64,000 nt of DNA, taken from NCBI GenBank assembly GCA_045598245.1, contig JAZLLQ010000035.1, positions 5,579 to 69,578 of the forward strand. Reading direction: 5' to 3'. Within the stretch, counting starts at the first letter, position 1; the number at the start of each line of letters is the position of its first letter. Positions 2,929 through 51,451 of the stretch are shown piece by piece. The notes beneath the pieces are model-generated. The model ran no database searches, had not been told where the DNA came from, and saw nothing but the letters and a program-made list of their open reading frames with translations. The position numbers were made by a program, and so were the translations under genes. Source of the stretch: Candidatus Gastranaerophilales bacterium (GTDB lineage Bacteria > Cyanobacteriota > Vampirovibrionia > Gastranaerophilales > JAILCC01).

Positions 2929-3345
2929 ATGAAAATCAGCCGTATAAATTCGAATGTAAATTTCTCTTCCATAGTTGTTAAAGATAGTTCTAACGCTATG
3001 GGGATTTTGAATTATCACTTTCAGTTTGCATCTTCAATTCTGGAAAAAGCCCCTAATCTGTTAGGAAAAGAAGAAGTAAAATATAAAGCAAATTTGTTGG
3101 AAAAATTAAGTAAAGCGTGGAGAGAGCTTTCAACATCTGAGGATAAAAACATTGTGCTTTCGGCTAATCCTGATATTGCGGATAAGCAAAGCATTAAATC
3201 AATAGTTGCCGCAATTGAATATATAAAGAAGGGTAAGCCTGTAACAGTTGGAACAATTTCAGGTCAAGAAAGTATTTGTCAGTTTGCGGAAAAATTATTG
3301 TCTATTCAGAAAAAGTCTTTTATAAGAAGGCTTTTGCATTTGTAA
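2929..3345 (+). CDS. Hypothetical protein (138 aa) with N-terminus MKISRINSNVNFSSI
   Basis: ORF only. I recognise no family. Confidence 0.6.
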   Translation: MKISRINSNVNFSSIVVKDSSNAMGILNYHFQFASSILEKAPNLLGKEEVKYKANLLEKLSKAWRELSTSEDKNIVLSANPDIADKQSIKSIVAAIEYIKKGKPVTVGTISGQESICQFAEKLLSIQKKSFIRRLLHL

Positions 3346-4774: not shown

Positions 4775-5542
4775 ATGAAAACATTTAAACAAATATTATC
4801 CAAAGTACCTAAGCAAGTCTGGCATGTTGTTATTCTTTTAATAATTGCTATTGTGATTTTGGTCGTTCTTTTTTGTGTATATCCTTTGATAATTTCATCA
4901 AAAATTTCAATTAACGATAAGCATAAAGAAACTCAGGTTATTACTCATAAAGAACAGCCCGCAAATATAGAGAAGCAGACTCCTGTTAATATTTCTGAAA
5001 AAACTTTAAATAACTCTAAAAAGCTAAATACTAAAGATAACTCTTTGCTATTGAAAAAAACAAAACAAAATAACATCACGCCGACAGGCAATAAAAATTC
5101 TGCGGATGTTGCAAATGTTGCTTCCGAAAAGGAACAACAACATCAAAATAATGCTGTTAATTTTGATACGTACATAATTGATATACAAAATAAAATTAAA
5201 GCCAATTGGAAGCCGCCTATATCTAAGAATAGCAGAAAGACCGTAGTTTTGTTTACTGTTGCAAAAGATGGCTCAATAGTAAAATCGGACATTGTAAAAT
5301 CATCAGGTAATAAGGAAATGGATAAATCATCATTAACTGCAATTAATGTATCTGCTCCTTTTAACCGTTTACCGGAAGAATATACCGGTGATGAAGTCGA
5401 TATTCAATTTACTTTTGATTATAATTTTATAAAATCTGATACAAAAACCAAGCATCAAAAATCAACTTTTATGCCATTACAATCGGATGTAACTGATGAT
5501 AATGAGCAGGAACAAGTTATTTTATCTGTTCCGATACAATAA
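4775..5542 (+). CDS. TonB/TolA-family C-terminal domain protein
   Basis: N-terminal TM helix, a polar linker, and a C-terminus following the TonB_C/TolA pattern (IKANWKPP..VVLFTVAKDGSIV..IVKSSGNKEMDKSSLTAI..SAPF..LP). Confidence 0.55.
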   Translation: MKTFKQILSKVPKQVWHVVILLIIAIVILVVLFCVYPLIISSKISINDKHKETQVITHKEQPANIEKQTPVNISEKTLNNSKKLNTKDNSLLLKKTKQNNITPTGNKNSADVANVASEKEQQHQNNAVNFDTYIIDIQNKIKANWKPPISKNSRKTVVLFTVAKDGSIVKSDIVKSSGNKEMDKSSLTAINVSAPFNRLPEEYTGDEVDIQFTFDYNFIKSDTKTKHQKSTFMPLQSDVTDDNEQEQVILSVPIQ

Positions 5543-8803: not shown

Positions 8804-10153
8804 ATGATATCTGACAGCCCATTGATGATACTTGGAATATTTCACCCTGTACGCCGCAGTGGACGGACTATATATCCTATTGCAATTCCCGTACATTCTG
8901 CATACGCTGATTATTCAATTAATCAAGCTCAAAAATCAGATAAGGCTTTAATGAAGGGTCTTAACGGTGAGGTATCAGCATTTAGTGACGGAAGCAATAC
9001 GGTTGTAAAAAAACTTTATAGTGCAAAACAAGCAAACAACTTTTCGCCTACAAGAGAAATTAAAGCATTAGTTGCACTTGAAGTTAATGGAATATGTGGA
9101 CCGGGTATTCAGACAGGTTTTCAGGCAGTTAAAAATGCTGACGGTGATACTTATATTGTTTCAAGTCAGATTAACGGCTCAAAACCTCATCCTGATAAAA
9201 ATAAATTTAATCCCCAAAATATGTCAGAAATGGCAAAAGTTCTGGCATATCTTGATACCCCGGGATATTATTGGAATCACAAAAAACCATTCAGAGTTGC
9301 AACATCACCAAATTTATTAATGCATTATGATTTAAAACCCGGTAATGTACTTATTACCGATAAACATTTTGGTGTAATTGATTTTGAGTATTTGGATTTT
9401 CTTAACCTTTTTTTATCAAAAAGAAAATTAAACAAACAAAATTGGGGCATATTATGTAATTGCTCAGATTTACCTGAAATACCATCTAATTTGAGAAGTT
9501 TTGAATATCGTTCATTGCTTCCGTATATAGAAAAAATGGAGCCGAATGAAGCTCCTGATTTGTTTAAAGATTATTTAATACATAAAAGTACTTATCATGA
9601 ACTTATGGCTGATTCGTATAAAAAATTAAAAAGAAAAGTTCCAATATTTACTGTGGCATCCCTGTTTAATTCGGACAATTCTCCAAAAAGAAAAACAGAA
9701 AAAATCATACAAGGTCATTTGGCTCATAGCGAAGTTCTCAGAAAACCGACAAGTGATGTAATAAAGGCAGAAGCTATAAAAATTCAGATTTCACGTTATA
9801 TTTATTTACTCAGTACGCATGCTCACGGTGAAAAAACAGAATTGAATTTAGAGCAAATACGAAATTATATAATAAATGCTCAAAAATTCTTTTCCGACCA
9901 AAATAAAAATGCATCGGGTGCAAGACAAATATACTATCAGAATTGTCTTGATTTGATTAATCGTTGGATAAAAATTCTTCCTATAATTCAAAATGGTCAA
10001 ATGAAAGAAAAATTGGATTATTATAGGGATATATCAGGAACGTCTGATGCTGAAGTTTGTCCTAACGGTATGTATGAAACAACTTTTACCACCGGAATTC
10101 TGAAAACACTTGATGAAATTGTAAAGCCTAATGCTATATTGTTAAGCAAGTAA
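8804..10153 (+). CDS. Protein-kinase-like fold phosphotransferase (APH/choline-kinase-like)
   Basis: Catalytic-loop motif HYDLKPGNVLI (9323-9346) and metal-binding motif VIDFE (9377-9388), with upstream VVKK and EIKAL. Confidence 0.6.
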   Translation: MISDSPLMILGIFHPVRRSGRTIYPIAIPVHSAYADYSINQAQKSDKALMKGLNGEVSAFSDGSNTVVKKLYSAKQANNFSPTREIKALVALEVNGICGPGIQTGFQAVKNADGDTYIVSSQINGSKPHPDKNKFNPQNMSEMAKVLAYLDTPGYYWNHKKPFRVATSPNLLMHYDLKPGNVLITDKHFGVIDFEYLDFLNLFLSKRKLNKQNWGILCNCSDLPEIPSNLRSFEYRSLLPYIEKMEPNEAPDLFKDYLIHKSTYHELMADSYKKLKRKVPIFTVASLFNSDNSPKRKTEKIIQGHLAHSEVLRKPTSDVIKAEAIKIQISRYIYLLSTHAHGEKTELNLEQIRNYIINAQKFFSDQNKNASGARQIYYQNCLDLINRWIKILPIIQNGQMKEKLDYYRDISGTSDAEVCPNGMYETTFTTGILKTLDEIVKPNAILLSK

Positions 10154-10271: not shown

Positions 10272-11270
10272 ATGCTGAAGATAAAAAGAACTCTTTTTGA
10301 CCATATAAAAGAACAGGATTTTGTAAAATTCATGTTCATTAACCCGGAGCAAATTCAAAGATTTTCGGGTAACATTGCGGTACGTGCATTTAACCATATT
10401 TTACCGCCTTCAAAAAAGTTTTTGAGAGAAACTTTTAACGCGCTAGAGAATAATAAAATTTTATCACAATTATCTTTAGTACCGGATAATTTTTCCAATA
10501 CGCGTTTTCAGATTTCTTCTTTAAAAATAAGAGAGGGAAGTGAATTTGTAGCAAAACCGCTTATAGATTATGTTGTTAATAAATTTGGCGGTAATGGTGC
10601 TACGAGTTTTATGGTTTATGTTGATGAAAATGCACCGCAGATTATTTCTCTTTTTAAAAACGAATGTGGTTTTAGAAGTTGCGCTAAGGTTGAATTTTAT
10701 CAAACTGAGGATTTAAAAACAGAAGAAAATTCATTTAATGAAAAAAATTTCAGGGATTTGAAAGATAGTGATATTCTTGAACTTTTAGAAATTAATACTT
10801 TGAATATAGCTCCGCACTTTCGCCCTGCTCTGATTTCAAAGTTAAAAACATTTAAACGTAAGTTTTTAAAACATACCAAAAATGATTTTTTCAAGGTTTT
10901 TGTTGTTAACTCTTCTCCTGAAGGATATTTTAGAGTATATACTACTGATGGTGAAAATTTTGTAGCCGATATAATCACATCTAAACCTTATGAACAATGT
11001 TATGCCGAAATGATTTCGTACATCAAACATTCTCTTTCAAAAAATAAAAAATTCAAAACGCTTACCGTGCTTTTGAAAAGATATCGTGAAACCTCAAAAG
11101 CACTTGAAGATATATTGAACAATACTGATTTTAAATTAACCAATGTTACTCAGGTTTTGATAAAAGATTATTGGCACAGAGTTTCCGAAAGTCAATTTGA
11201 AGAGAAATTTCTGGTATTTTTTAATGATTTAACTGCACAACCTGCAAGATATAATTCATTTATGCTATAA
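10272..11270 (+). CDS. Hypothetical protein, possibly GNAT-like acetyltransferase fold
   Basis: The segment VVNKFGGNGATSFMVYVDENAPQIISLFKNECGF resembles the GNAT AcCoA-binding loop and terminal motif. The match is weak. Confidence 0.35.
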   Translation: MLKIKRTLFDHIKEQDFVKFMFINPEQIQRFSGNIAVRAFNHILPPSKKFLRETFNALENNKILSQLSLVPDNFSNTRFQISSLKIREGSEFVAKPLIDYVVNKFGGNGATSFMVYVDENAPQIISLFKNECGFRSCAKVEFYQTEDLKTEENSFNEKNFRDLKDSDILELLEINTLNIAPHFRPALISKLKTFKRKFLKHTKNDFFKVFVVNSSPEGYFRVYTTDGENFVADIITSKPYEQCYAEMISYIKHSLSKNKKFKTLTVLLKRYRETSKALEDILNNTDFKLTNVTQVLIKDYWHRVSESQFEEKFLVFFNDLTAQPARYNSFML

Positions 11271-17040: not shown

Positions 17041-17230
17041 TGTATAAGTCCTCTCTAAAAAAAATCTTTTACCATTTTATTTTAGCAAAAACAAAATATA
17101 AACACAAAACATATAGAGCCTATGATAAATCTTCTTCAATTGAGGAATTTATTGATTTTACCAAACTTGCTGATAAAAAACAGTTTAACTTAAAATAATT
17201 ACCTGAAGAAAGCAAGATTAAAATATAAGT

Positions 17231-17268
17231 AAAAAAGAAACCGACTTATTTAGCCGGTTTCTTTTTTT
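17231..17268. terminator. Terminator downstream of malQ (palindromic, flanked by A and T runs)
   Basis: AAAAAA-GAAACCG..CGGTTTC-TTTTTTT. Confidence 0.8.
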
Positions 17269-17308
17269 GAGAATTTGTTTTTTTCGGCTTCTTTACCGAA
17301 AGTTTCTT

Positions 17309-37100: not shown

Positions 37101-37651
37101 GCTATTCTGCCTTCCACAACATCAAGCTCTTTATTTGCCTGTTCAATCCTTCTGTCAAAATCAGCCACTCCTGCAATTTCATCAATAATTTTTCTTCTGT
37201 TCAGCGGACTTGATGCGGTGATTTTTGTGATTTCATATTGCATTAAAACATTGTAACTGTTTGGTGTTACATTGTATTTTAGCAGTTGCTCATGAATTTC
37301 AGTAAGTGAGGAGTTTTTATCGTTAAGTTGATATCCGCTTATATAACCGGCTGAAGTCTTTTTGACTTCACGTCTTACGGTCATAATGTCGTTATCACTT
37401 TCATCGGCAAAAGTTATTTTTACTGATGCTTTTTCTTGTTTTGAATTCCAGTTGATAAAATCTTTTAAACTGTCAACTCGAATACTTGCTTTAGAAGTAG
37501 ACAAACCCAGACAAAACAAAATACTGTCTATGATATTACTTTTCCCTGAACCGTTCGGACCTGCTACCGCAGTAAAGCCTTTCATAAACGGAATAGTTAT
37601 TTTTCCCGCACAGGATTTGAAATTTTCTATTTCAAGTTCTTTTATATGCAT
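34154..37651 (-). CDS. smc: Chromosome partition protein Smc
   Basis: MHIKELEIENFKS...GPNGSGKSN (Walker A), long coiled coils, a hinge, LSGGEKSLTALAF (signature motif) and YALDEADASLD (Walker B). Start is at Met15 of the track ORF. Confidence 0.95.
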   Translation of the reverse strand: MHIKELEIENFKSCAGKITIPFMKGFTAVAGPNGSGKSNIIDSILFCLGLSTSKASIRVDSLKDFINWNSKQEKASVKITFADESDNDIMTVRREVKKTSAGYISGYQLNDKNSSLTEIHEQLLKYNVTPNSYNVLMQYEITKITASSPLNRRKIIDEIAGVADFDRRIEQANKELDVVEGRIASSSIVLGEIDTRLEVLKEQKETAIKYQKLRDEKAKYESQKSTVKYFDIKNSLERVHENILETNKDKKQKEKELERADKELEDAKIKLHEISELVKQKGEAEQLRTKAQISDLNSNINTKRNSITFMNEQKEKNIESIKNSNVNIENLKDKIEEAKLRIDNKNDEIKSYEQNLEQEKENLEKVMQDIETTSSMSNESVKKRAELRTTLENKQDEENNILKEIFPLQEDIRRFERDLSDATEIINEFDKTQNEKLAEKDKIDVKIEELQKELKDYELTQKSLLSNLDNIKGKLNEAQRNIVLGAQNVAKLEAKQQTMAEMNVNRPVDFIMNSKIDGVHAPLAQLGNVDKEYETALEIAMGGRMANIVVEDEDVAGVCIDILKSSRAGRATFLPLNKIKRAPDNLNPPNINGVVDYAINLIDFDDDYYDAFYHALGDTLIVEDRMTAQKLIGKYRMVVLDGSLYEKSASITGGSVPQNRMKFSSSEDKELENCKAKLNEFQDEADKLMRKKDDIENKINMIRGDYSLATTELNKQIALRDNLVLTLDNAQKTLETKKLIIEEVTPKLDESKGKLENLEKQQTEIQNQIQKLQNDISEIEKAIPEDELAKLNDMSEAINTEISRYRTSILNAQGEIKNINNEIGFNEQAIELQKNQIEKLEKDNIDHEKNIKLTNEQIAQIEVQVNELQEKVKEIDEKLSELQAQRDIVQNEVLEYQNQKTNLTINLERIVESIEALKGRRKELEPELEQIRNELTEAGYQVASLQPVEISTEELEKAMARIEKKMQEMGDVNMVAIKEYDEYSQRKEELKTKLDTLSTEKQEIQLRMQGYEDMKKTTFLEAYTKINENFQKICTQLFDGTGSLVLEIPDDPLAGGLSITAQFRDKDEAKKLTGLSGGEKSLTALAFVFAIQRYLPAPFYALDEADASLDGINAAKLSKMIKEQSENTQFIVVSHHKSMIESASRTIGITQGKGITKVTGIKLSD

Positions 37652-37855
37652 ATATTTTATTTTTCCCAAGAATTTATATATAAATCTCCTCATTTTTAGT
37701 AAAAACTACAATGTCAATTTTGTCAAAAAAGTTAAGATAACGTAAAACTTTTTGTCAATGCGGCAAGTATCCGCATTTTTACAGCAGTATAGCTTTTTAA
37801 AAATAAATAAATTAATTGTATTCTCATCCAAACGGATGATATTAAATCAAAATGT

Positions 37856-37882
37856 TAAAGTTTCAAAAAAATATGCCGATAA
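37856..37882 (+). promoter_or_regulatory. Sigma-28 (FliA)-type promoter, exact consensus
   Basis: TAAAGTTT (37856-37863), an 11-nt spacer, then GCCGATAA (37875-37882). This equals the consensus TAAAGTTT-N11-GCCGATAA. Confidence 0.7.
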
Positions 37883-37889
37883 CATATAT

Positions 37890-37967
37890 GTGAGATGACC
37901 GAAAGGTCATATTCCAAACCTCCTCCCCAAGTCTAGTAGCCGTCACGAATGAGACGGCTTTTATTTT
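37890..37967 (+). ncRNA. Candidate sigma-28-dependent small RNA (~78 nt)
   Basis: 5' hairpin ATGACC-GAAA-GGTCAT (37895-37910), an unpaired CU-rich segment ACCTCCTCCCCA (37918-37929), and a terminator GCCGTC-8nt-GACGGC plus TTTTATTTT (37939-37967). It holds no ORF longer than 13 codons, and its terminator lies about 200 nt upstream of the next gene. Confidence 0.55.
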
Positions 37968-38174
37968 GTTTAAAAACAAATGTGTTTATATAATTGGTAT
38001 AACATTTGCACATGTTAGTTGATATTACTGCCGTATTTTTGCTTTTTATACTTTTGTTTATTAATTCGGAATTTGCAAAAAAGTCAATTAGCAAGTATAA
38101 TTAAATATGATTGTTATTTGTATGAATAACTTTTGTCTATATTGAAATAGTGAAAGGGTTTTTAGCAGTAAGAA

Positions 38175-39512
38175 ATGAGCGAAAGCGATATATCTGTTTT
38201 GAGTTTTTTATTGGTAATTATTTTGTTACTTACAAACGCTTTTTTTGTTGCATCGGAATTTGCTCTTGTCAGCGTAAGACGTACAAAACTTGCAGAACTT
38301 GCAAATGACGGGAACAACAATGCCAAAATTGCATTAAAAGCCGTTGGTGAATTAGATAAATATATAGCTGCAACCCAATTAGGTATAACAATTGCGAGTA
38401 TTGGTTTAGGTTGGGTCGGTGAAGCTGCATTGGTAAAATTGATTTTACCTTTATTTGATTTTATCCCATGGATAGATGCAAAGCTTGCAACGGCACATTC
38501 GATTTCTGTTGCCATTGCTTTTTCCGTAATTACTTTAATGCATGTTGTTATCGGAGAATTGGCTCCAAAATCAATAGCGCTTGAATACACAGACAAGACA
38601 GCTCTTTTTATAGCAAGACCAATGCAATTTGCCGCAACCGTTTTTAAACCTTTTATATGGATATTAAACGGACTTGGTAACGGAATACTAAAGCTGTTTG
38701 GGATAAAACCGGGTACGCATCACGCACATTCAACCGAAGAATTAAATATGCTTATTGATGCAAGTTATAATGACGGTGTAATTAATGAAACCGAAAAAGA
38801 TATGTTGCAAAACGTATTCAAATTTTCAGATTTAACTGCAAAGCAAGTTATGATACCACGTACGGATATGACTTGTATCCCTATTGAAATTACTTTGGAT
38901 GAATTGAAAAAGATTACATGCGAATCTCAATATACACGTTATCCCGTATTTGAAAATGATTTGGATAATATAGTAGGTATAATTCACGTAAAAGATGTTT
39001 ATGCTGCATCATTAACAGGCGAATTTGATATTGAAAAATTAATTCGTAAGCCTATGATGATACCAGAAACAGTAAATATCGATCGTTTGCTTTTGGATTT
39101 TAAAGAGCAACAAAATCAAATGGCTATAGTAATTGATGAATTTGGAGGCACTTCAGGTCTTATTACTCTTGAGGATGTTTTGGAAGAGATTTTCGGTGAA
39201 GTGCAAGATGAATTTGACTCTGATGAGGAAGAAGATTTGGTTCAAATTTCAGAAACATGCTATGAAGTTAATGCAATGATGCGAACCGATGAACTGTCAG
39301 AAGTTTTGAATGTTAATATTGAAGATGAAGACGTAGATACAATTGGTGGTTTTGTTGTAAAACTTCTCGGCAGATTGGCGAAGAAAAATGATATTGTTGT
39401 TTATGAAAATCTTGAATTTGTTGTTAAAGAAATTTCTAAGACAAGAATTACAAAATTGAAGATAAATATAATTCCTTCTACCCCGCTTGAAGAAAGCATT
39501 TCCGAAGAATAA
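38175..39512 (+). CDS. CNNM/CorC-family protein (DUF21 transmembrane domain, CBS pair, CorC_HlyC domain; annotated as 'hemolysin family' in many genomes)
   Basis: N-terminal SEFALVSVRR (DUF21), the IMIPRTDM CBS region, and the C-terminal IDEFGGTSGLITLEDVLEEI.GE motif. Confidence 0.88.
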   Translation: MSESDISVLSFLLVIILLLTNAFFVASEFALVSVRRTKLAELANDGNNNAKIALKAVGELDKYIAATQLGITIASIGLGWVGEAALVKLILPLFDFIPWIDAKLATAHSISVAIAFSVITLMHVVIGELAPKSIALEYTDKTALFIARPMQFAATVFKPFIWILNGLGNGILKLFGIKPGTHHAHSTEELNMLIDASYNDGVINETEKDMLQNVFKFSDLTAKQVMIPRTDMTCIPIEITLDELKKITCESQYTRYPVFENDLDNIVGIIHVKDVYAASLTGEFDIEKLIRKPMMIPETVNIDRLLLDFKEQQNQMAIVIDEFGGTSGLITLEDVLEEIFGEVQDEFDSDEEEDLVQISETCYEVNAMMRTDELSEVLNVNIEDEDVDTIGGFVVKLLGRLAKKNDIVVYENLEFVVKEISKTRITKLKINIIPSTPLEESISEE

Positions 39513-50723: not shown

Positions 50724-51161
50724 ATGAAGTTACAAACGACAAAATTTGGGGAAGTCGAGGTTAGCGAAGATTATGTATTCACTTTTGTAGAGCCGATTAT
50801 AGGCTATGATGAATACAAGGAGTTTGCACTAATAGATTATAATGAAAAATCCCCGTTTAAGTGGTTGCAAGCGGTGGATAATCCGGAATTGGCATTACCT
50901 GTAACAATACCTGCTTATTTTGGAATACCATATCAATTTACAATTCCTGATGAAAAAGAAAATATATTAGAAGCAAAAGATGCAAACAGCATTTTGGCAT
51001 TGAATATAGCCAATATTCCCAACGGAGAACCTCAAAATGCAACCGTTAATTTGTTAGCACCAATTGTAGTCAATACGGATAACAAAAAAGCAATCCAGCT
51101 TATACTTACGAATAGTGATTTCTCCGTAAGATACAAGATTTTTAATTATAAGGATAAATAA
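50724..51161 (+). CDS. fliW: Flagellar assembly factor FliW
   Basis: FliW-like sequence (T.FGE.EV.ED.V..F..GI.G...YK.F.L......PF.WLQ). The gene is directly coupled to csrA by an ATGA-type overlap at 51161. Confidence 0.88.
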   Translation: MKLQTTKFGEVEVSEDYVFTFVEPIIGYDEYKEFALIDYNEKSPFKWLQAVDNPELALPVTIPAYFGIPYQFTIPDEKENILEAKDANSILALNIANIPNGEPQNATVNLLAPIVVNTDNKKAIQLILTNSDFSVRYKIFNYKDK

Positions 51162-51451
51162 TGTTAGTACTAACCAGAAAATTAGGGCAAAGCATAATAA
51201 TTAATGACAATGTTGAAGTTACTATCCTTGAAGTAAAAGGCGAGTCTGTTCGTATTGGTGTTGAAGCACCAAGAGAAGTGGCTGTATACAGGCGTGAAAT
51301 ATACGAAGAAATTAAACGAGAAAACCAAAATACTGCTAAGCAATCTTCTTTGGAAGATGTTTCTTTGGCATTAGATATGCTAAAAACTTATAATACAAGT
51401 TCTAAACAAGATTTCAAAATTGTTATAAATAAGAAAAATGATAAAAAATAG
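51161..51451 (+). CDS. csrA: Carbon storage regulator CsrA (FliW-partnered type with C-terminal extension)
   Basis: MLVLTRKLGQSIIINDNVEVTILEVKGESVRIGVEAPREVAVYRREIYE is the canonical CsrA sequence. Confidence 0.95.
   Translation: MLVLTRKLGQSIIINDNVEVTILEVKGESVRIGVEAPREVAVYRREIYEEIKRENQNTAKQSSLEDVSLALDMLKTYNTSSKQDFKIVINKKNDKK

Follow-up and report, generated by a model that had tools for sequence, protein, structure and literature searches.

Does the gap between smc and a gene for a CNNM/CorC-type transporter in a Candidatus Gastranaerophilales genome hold the gene of a small regulatory RNA (sRNA) driven by the flagellar sigma factor? An initial annotation, made from the letters alone, had proposed such a gene, and we examined it in the stretch of 64,000 nucleotides in which it lies (assembly GCA_045598245.1, contig JAZLLQ010000035.1, positions 5,579 to 69,578 of the forward strand; hereafter the window). 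The window has a G+C content of 33%, and the unit sits in it between smc on the minus strand, with scpA and scpB behind smc, and the CNNM gene on the plus strand. Our analysis makes it reasonably probable that the interval 37856-37967 (+) is the gene for a free-standing, terminated sRNA of ~75-80 nt that is driven by sigma-28 and pairs with ribosome-binding sites. Taken separately, it is highly probable that gene, structure and promoter all exist as described and are under selection, while the idea that the RNA acts by pairing at ribosome-binding sites has about even chances. We infer the transcript itself, its dependence on FliA, its role in flagellar control and its base pairing from sequence features. 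The unit apparently represents an undescribed sRNA family of the Gastranaerophilales/Melainabacteria.

A consensus sigma-28-type promoter precedes a predicted terminated hairpin RNA

Read directly from the sequence, the promoter consists of a sigma-28 (FliA/SigD)-type -35 element, TAAAGTTT (37856-37863, +), and a -10 element, GCCGATAA (37875-37882, +), which lies 15 nt after TAAA with an 11-nt spacer between the boxes. Measured against the sigma-28 consensus that we used (-35 TAAA(GTTT), -10 GCCGATAA, TAAA and GCCG 15 nt apart), the claimed exact match holds at 16 of 16 positions with exact spacing, and both boxes are where they had been placed. The relaxed pattern TAAA-N14-16-GCCGATAW occurs once in the 64-kb window against 0.07 occurrences expected. 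The window also has no second -10 box of this sequence with a correctly spaced TAAA, as had been reported from a scan by eye, the next-best matches to the full 16-base pattern having 2 or 3 mismatches.

Transcription from this promoter would start 6-9 nt after the -10 box, giving a predicted primary transcript of ~75-80 nt (37889-37967, +) with its 3' end in a U-tract. The three elements described for this RNA, namely a hairpin, an unpaired CU-rich box and a GC hairpin with a U-tract, were each found in their place. The 5' hairpin ATGACC/GAAA/GGTCAT (37895-37910, +) is followed by the unpaired region AUUCCAAACCUCCUCCCCAAGUCUAGUA (37911-37938, +), which contains the family-invariant core ACCUCCUCCCCAAGUCU (37918-37934, +), the presumed seed, and the CU-rich CCUCCUCCCC (37919-37928, +), which resembles an anti-Shine-Dalgarno sequence. 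Next comes an intrinsic terminator hairpin, GCCGTC/ACGAATGA/GACGGC (37939-37958, +; in RNA GCCGUC/ACGAAUGA/GACGGC), with the tail TTTTATTTT reaching to 37967 (+) and UUUUAUUUU as the U-tract, in agreement with a terminator scan. Folding of the predicted RNA gives a 5' hairpin, an open core and the terminator at -23.9 kcal/mol (z = -3.8), and CCTCCTCCCC occurs once in the window.

The RNA belongs to a family with an invariant core and covarying stems

We scanned metagenome contigs for the pattern TAAA-N14-16-GCCGATAA-N20-50-CCTCCTCCC and obtained 107 stretches. About half of these share features that the pattern did not request: a hairpin of variable sequence right after the promoter, an extended core (ACCTCCTCCCC(A/G)AG, mostly continuing TCTRGTAGCCG) and a GC-rich hairpin with a T-tract. 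A covariance model, R1, built from four RNAs alone and covering only the RNA, picked up 50 copies with E <= 4e-4, with no comparable match elsewhere. Among the copies, hairpin and terminator combine in at least 15 distinct ways, and the core ACCUCCUCCCC(A/G)AG is common to all family members. R1 matches the window at 37890-37968 with 93.5 bits (E = 1.7e-19); its only other match in the window, 17230-17304 (-), is weak (20 bits), lacks the core and is a pair of terminator-like hairpins. No copy of the sRNA was found in viral contigs.

The single-sequence folds and the alignments both point to a conserved structure. All 13 variants that we folded singly give the arrangement of 5' hairpin, unpaired core and terminator (z from -2.9 to -5.1), with the core unpaired in the minimum-energy structure of every one. 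Across the family the unpaired region measures 21-30 nt and the RNAs ~70-82 nt. No variant lacks the 5' hairpin (hairpin 1), whose stem occurs in 10 or more different sequences, among them ATGACC/GGTCAT, AGGTC/GACCT, ATGGAAAACC/GGTTTTTCAT, AAGAACCG/CGGTTTCTT, GTAAGGC/GCTTTAC and GTTAGAC/GTCTAAC. The alignments were fitted to the structure, which flatters the covariation counts that follow (the single-sequence folds are free of that bias): in a hand alignment of 15 variants 95% of the cells of hairpin 1 are canonical against 64% after shuffling, with two-sided changes at 7 of 7 positions, and in a model-based alignment two-sided changes occur in all 5 pairs of this hairpin, 94.2% of the cells of the whole structure are paired against 79.7% after shuffling (a level reached by 0 of 500 shuffles) and 9 of 11 pairs change on both sides, controls with slid partners pairing at 19-52%. 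These two alignments were used in place of a plain MAFFT alignment, which misplaced hairpin 1 and from which RNAalifold saw the terminator only. The terminator stem likewise varies with compensation (for example GCTGTC/GACAGC and GCCGTTCTT/AAGAATGGC). Conservation of the promoter and hairpins in relatives had been set beforehand as the test of the proposal, and the proposal passes it, with at least 15 variants that have an invariant core and covarying stems. Such conservation in other genomes shows that the unit is not a chance juxtaposition.

The same variants bear on two readings that place the function elsewhere than in the RNA. The transcript could encode a 13-residue peptide, MTERSYSKPPPQV, for which the window does have an open reading frame (ORF; ATGACC...GTCTAG, 37895-37936) with a PPP run; this ORF, however, has no ribosome-binding site, its ATG belongs to the covarying stem and is missing in many variants (ATAAGACC, GTAAGGTC, GTTAGAC), and the core is in another frame in the human-gut group, which makes a peptide extremely improbable. 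Equally hard to credit is a functional element on the opposite strand. The complement of the core, GGGGAGGAGG, would be a very strong ribosome-binding site followed by an ATG, and in several variants GGAGGAGG does stand 4-8 nt before an ATG on the complement; but the reverse ORFs have 4-15 codons and are not conserved, and only the plus strand has the promoter boxes and a T-tract behind the GC hairpin.

By exact look-up of neighbouring proteins, the hosts of the family are Ca. Gastranaerophilales HUM_3/4/5/22 and 'Acinetobacter sp. CAG:196' (commonest variant, 22 human-gut contigs), together with 'Brachyspira sp. CAG:484', Ca. Adamsella and the groundwater Ca. Melainabacteria GWF2_32_7. All family loci have a G+C content of 29-42%. 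The genomic context differs between host groups and the gene downstream of the sRNA is usually convergent with it, which fits a free-standing, trans-acting gene.

This context also decides against the sRNA unit being a 5' leader or attenuator of the CNNM gene, with its terminator as a regulated switch. In the window the unit does have the same orientation as CNNM and lies upstream of it, the distance from the terminator to the CNNM start at 38175 being 208 nt where about 200 nt had been given. CNNM has its own sigma-70-like promoter, TTTGCA-N18-TATAAT (38072-38101, +), downstream of the sRNA terminator. A synteny search via CNNM in GTDB genomes led to three relatives (L001, L002 and L003) whose CNNM is 73-82% identical to the window's and whose upstream neighbours are different; all three keep TTTGCA-N18-TATAAT ahead of CNNM (L001 ~1640-1680, L002 ~3020-3055, L003 ~4890-4930), and the sRNA unit is absent upstream of CNNM in each of them. 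Other genomes, in turn, hold the RNA in unrelated contexts, mostly convergent with the next gene, and the folded variants offer no conserved anti-terminator alternative. A leader function thus has next to no likelihood, and the description of the unit as a stand-alone sRNA behind a sigma-28-type promoter agrees with the CNNM genes of relatives, which lack the unit and keep their own promoter, and with the presence of the sigma-28-type promoter in independent copies of the RNA.

Some observations concern individual loci. A human-gut contig (L115) carries two identical sRNA copies including their promoters, 1.5 kb apart (1323-1399 and 2833-2909, -), as a tandem duplication or an assembly repeat. 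In L022, whose genome has a G+C content of 37%, the ~95 nt directly after the sRNA terminator (reverse strand, ~4880-4977) are GC-rich (GCGCGAGTGAGCGGAGGGCGCAGGCTGGCGTCGGCTTGCGG...), and no Rfam family matches this stretch at gathering score. In L118 fliI is convergent with the sRNA; a link to fliI was rejected, other fliI loci being without the sRNA. Two higher-G+C contigs from soil and wetland, L019 (1164-1270, +) and L096 (534-650, -), each have a 5' hairpin, an unpaired CCUCCUCCC and a strong terminator behind a consensus sigma-28 promoter, and the model of the sRNA family gives no match to them; a similar design may exist in other lineages.

The promoter is conserved and resembles flagellar promoters of the clade

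Because the first search demanded the promoter, its conservation was checked by two further routes. Among 19 distinct family promoters, G follows TAAA in 17, compared with 14 of 46 unrelated hits to the pattern, and the spacing from TAAA to the -10 box is 15 nt in 15, 16 nt in 4 and 14 nt in none, whereas the unrelated hits spread across 14, 15 and 16. What the family promoters keep, while their spacers and flanks have diverged, are TAAAG, a spacing of 15-16 nt and the -10 box. The second, unbiased route started from orthologues (47-57% identical) of the glucosaminidase gene that is adjacent to the sRNA in the human-gut group, and six such loci were searched with the RNA-only model. The sRNA was found in five of the six, and all five syntenic copies carry TAAAG-N14-G(C/T)CGATAA at equal distance, the -10 box being GCCGATAA in L127 and L131 and GTCGATAA in L129, L130 and L132.

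According to a published report, Melainabacteria are flagellated and their flagellar genes branch with the Firmicutes and Spirochaetes ones (PMC3787301), and complete flagellar gene sets are present in only some Gastranaerophilales (PMC4040986). In three Melainabacteria lineages we found flagellin promoters of the same kind: the flagellin gene in L002, the relative with a CNNM 82% identical to the window's, is preceded by TAAAG-N14-GCCGTTAT, and those in L133 and L134 by TAAAGAAT-N11-TTCGATAA. On a contig that carries the sRNA (L063), TAAATAAT-N11-TCCGATAT precedes a chemoreceptor gene (MCP signalling domain, Pfam E = 5e-39), and in L022, from the human-gut group, a LysM-glucosaminidase gene divergent from the sRNA starts 45 nt after TAAAGTTT-N11-GCCGTTAT (5167-5193, +). 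These flagellin, MCP and hydrolase promoters are near-consensus variants and not exact matches; a strict scan of 455 kb turned up no further sigma-28 promoter, a relaxed -10 box being needed. Downstream of the -10 box, sRNA and flagellin promoters have similar bases (...ATGTGAG, ...ATGTAAG, ...AAGTGTAAG), which suggests that they may share a similar start point. As far as sequence can show, the motif is used by the flagellar programme of the clade. These promoters, the fliW-csrA pair of the window and the published accounts of flagella give indirect support to the predicted dependence on FliA.

In L022 a paralogue of the hydrolase stands on the other side of the sRNA, and the two, possibly peptidoglycan hydrolases associated with the flagellum, may form a small sigma-28 'island'. 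The window itself has two near-consensus sites that may be due to chance. One, TAAAGGTG-N11-TTCGATAA (58397-58423, +), lies 175 nt before two ORFs without a Pfam match (58599-58973 and 58954-59358), and the other, TAAACTTT-N11-TCCGATAA (23197-23223, -), is followed after 272 nt by an ORF (22133-22924) that has no Pfam match either.

Features of the flagellar loci were noted along the way. Flagellin leaders (L002 7510-7564; L133 ~9880-9939 and ~10880-10938; L134 ~9030-9088) have two GGA motifs, AUACAGGGAAG and, at the ribosome-binding site, AACAAGGAGAG. These paired motifs resemble the paired CsrA sites of Bacillus subtilis hag and fit the fliW-csrA operon of the window. The initial annotation was correct in listing FliW-CsrA among the products of the window (fliW and csrA, 50724-51451), and the window CsrA is long (96 residues). 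In L125 (9243-10536) fliI was called as two overlapping ORFs (249 and 183 residues) after fliF-fliG-fliH, and the protein database holds many FliI C-terminal pieces of ~183 residues from the clade; a frameshift, a split gene or a gene-calling artefact are possible. The 900-nt region upstream of the flagellin genes in L133 contains, at 9041-9560, repeated GC-rich elements (e.g. GTCATCCTGAGCGAAGCGAAGGATC, CATTGCGAGCGAGCGCAGCGAGCG) that look like a dispersed repeat family.

The core may pair with ribosome-binding sites

In the mechanism that we consider most likely, RNA polymerase with a sigma-28 factor of the FliA/SigD type would start a few bases after GCCGATAA, and transcription would end at the GC hairpin with its U-tract. 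The 5' hairpin and the terminator hairpin would keep ACCUCCUCCCC(A/G)AG single-stranded between them, so that the pyrimidine stretch could pair with one or more mRNAs at their G-rich ribosome-binding regions (GGAGG, GGGGAGG), altering the translation or stability of these mRNAs. Given the sigma-28-type promoter, the sRNA would act when the late flagellar genes are on. The proposed complementarity to Shine-Dalgarno sequences is borne out, since ACCUCCUCCCC resembles the anti-Shine-Dalgarno end of 16S rRNA and is therefore complementary to ribosome-binding sites of the GGAGG type. Only 19 of the 56 start regions in the window have a strong Shine-Dalgarno-like motif, and a seed that resembles an anti-Shine-Dalgarno sequence could therefore be selective.

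Several points weigh against this proposal. The initial scan pattern required promoter and core for most family members, and only the five syntenic copies test the promoter independently. At the sixth syntenic locus (L128) the RNA-only model found no sRNA, which has been lost or has moved. Target searches gave little: ~455 kb of family loci contain no exact complement of at least 9 nt near a start codon, the duplex scan of the window start regions was unremarkable (best -14.2, median -7.4 kcal/mol), and no convincing target emerged among the flagellin and fliF-I leaders, where the flagellin duplexes are interrupted and reach -10 to -16 kcal/mol in leaders that come from genomes not known to carry the sRNA. 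The invariant stretch, finally, continues beyond a typical seed, and this continuation (AAGUCURGUA) could equally mark a protein-binding or processing site. The genes of the neighbouring hydrolases did not yield a convincing target either.

An alternative is that the RNA is real and sigma-28-driven and works through a bound protein instead of through pairing with mRNA. The invariant CCUCCUCCCCAAGUCURGUA would then be the site at which a protein such as an RNA chaperone, a ribonuclease or a ribosomal protein recognises the RNA or is titrated by it. An invariant stretch of ~17-20 nt exceeds most seeds, no target with extended complementarity was found in the 0.45-0.6 Mb of family loci, window and flagellin leaders, and the same alternative was raised by the authors who described the ultraconserved motif of the cyanobacterial sRNA Yfr1 (PMC2190773). 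Yet the tail of the core, AAGUCURGUA, is deleted or altered in L055 and L037 while CCUCCUCCCC(A/G)AG is retained, which reduces the minimal invariant element to CCUCCUCCCC(A/G)AG, and an exposed pyrimidine run of anti-Shine-Dalgarno type between two hairpins is the classic layout of a pairing sRNA. In the version in which the RNA is a sponge for CsrA, the protein-binding alternative meets the further objection that the sRNA has zero GGA motifs, and a CsrA-sponge role is accordingly unlikely. Overall we regard action through a bound protein as a serious rival but rather unlikely, and base pairing at ribosome-binding sites is the mode of action that we prefer.

Setting of the unit in the window

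The longest smc ORF begins at 37693, and because the Pfam SMC_N match begins only at residue 16 of that ORF, the true start of smc is probably the ATG at 37651. Provided that smc starts there, the 523 nt given for the smc-CNNM gap are right. The CNNM protein of the window shares 82% identity with its counterpart in a metagenome-assembled Gastranaerophilales genome and 49% with the one in 'Cyanobacteria bacterium UBA3301'; after these come clostridial matches at <=40%, and an exact look-up of the protein found no identical record. By these matches the window derives from a relative of the cyanobacteria that does not photosynthesise (Melainabacteria/Vampirovibrionia). Elsewhere the window has two very large ORFs without a Pfam match (26533-30096 and 59421-62522, both -; 1187 and 1033 residues).

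Implications

Melainabacteria are almost entirely uncultured. For this common lineage of the human and animal gut, the family provides a concrete, highly conserved candidate for a post-transcriptional regulator that is tied by its promoter to the motility programme. The flagellin of gut Melainabacteria has been predicted to engage TLR5 (PMC3787301). If the proposed role is correct, control of late flagellar expression by sigma-28-dependent sRNAs would extend beyond Proteobacteria and Campylobacterota. The 17-nt invariant core offers an easy marker for metagenomes and metatranscriptomes, and the occurrence of a layout like that of Yfr1 in a clade that is sister to Cyanobacteria is an evolutionary question open to testing. 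On a further reading, which we hold to be improbable, the look-alikes in L019 and L096 would make sigma-28-driven sRNAs that mimic the anti-Shine-Dalgarno sequence a widespread, unrecognised class.

Comparison with known small RNAs

At neither curated nor permissive thresholds did Rfam give a family at the sRNA site in the window or in eight family loci. The permissive scans used E <= 10 at the window site and E <= 5 in three family loci, with 4227 models that presumably include Yfr1. A full-text search of the literature found no paper on the motif or on sRNAs of Melainabacteria.

The resemblance to Yfr1-type sRNAs that the initial annotation had noted holds for the layout of two hairpins and an unpaired CU-rich box, and fails for the defining motif, the unpaired length and the total size. 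Yfr1 has a 5' stem-loop of 6-10 bp, an unpaired stretch with an ultraconserved pyrimidine-rich motif and a GC-rich terminator with a U-tail (Voss et al. 2007, PMC2190773). It is defined by the undecamer ACUCCUCACAC in an unpaired region of 16-20 nt, with a total size of 54-69 nt (PMC2190773). The melainabacterial sRNA has in common with it two stem-loops flanking an unpaired region, the 3' one being a terminator, the sequence CUCCUC and the status of a stand-alone gene, and its hosts form a clade that is sister to the photosynthetic Cyanobacteria, which harbour Yfr1. On the other hand, the undecamer ACUCCUCACAC has 0 matches in the 1.1 Mb formed by the window and all loci, the motif here being ACCUCCUCCCCAAG, the unpaired region has 21-30 nt instead of 16-20 nt, and the RNA ~70-82 nt instead of 54-69 nt. 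The promoter is also of the sigma-28 type, unlike that of Yfr1 in Cyanobacteria, which to our knowledge have no flagella. That the sRNA is the melainabacterial orthologue or a deep relative of Yfr1, predating the split between Melainabacteria and oxygenic Cyanobacteria and wired to the flagellar sigma factor in the flagellated sister lineage, is in our view improbable. Its action would be like the one that Yfr1 may have, but we do not file it as Yfr1, distant homology being possible but unsupported.

For the presumed mode of action the closest parallel is with RsaE/RoxS of Bacillota, sRNAs with a C-rich seed that mask ribosome-binding sites. The likeness lies in an exposed C/U-rich motif complementary to G-rich Shine-Dalgarno regions. 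RsaE, however, is under the control of redox regulators and has UCCC motifs that are short and lie in loops, and no homology was detected, Rfam giving nothing at the sRNA site.

For the predicted regulatory logic the parallels are in Escherichia coli and Campylobacter jejuni. Tuning of flagella by sigma-28-dependent sRNAs is established in E. coli, as the initial annotation had stated, where UhpU, MotR, FliX and FlgO are all derived from untranslated regions (PMC10578931), and in C. jejuni, where the sigma-28-dependent sRNA is CJnc170/FlmR (PMC11187230); in both species these sRNAs exert feedback on flagellar synthesis. The melainabacterial sRNA has no sequence relationship to these (no Rfam match), comes from a different phylum and, in contrast to those of E. 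coli, is free-standing rather than derived from an untranslated region. What it would share with them is the logic of a FliA-type promoter that couples an sRNA to the late (class 3) flagellar genes.

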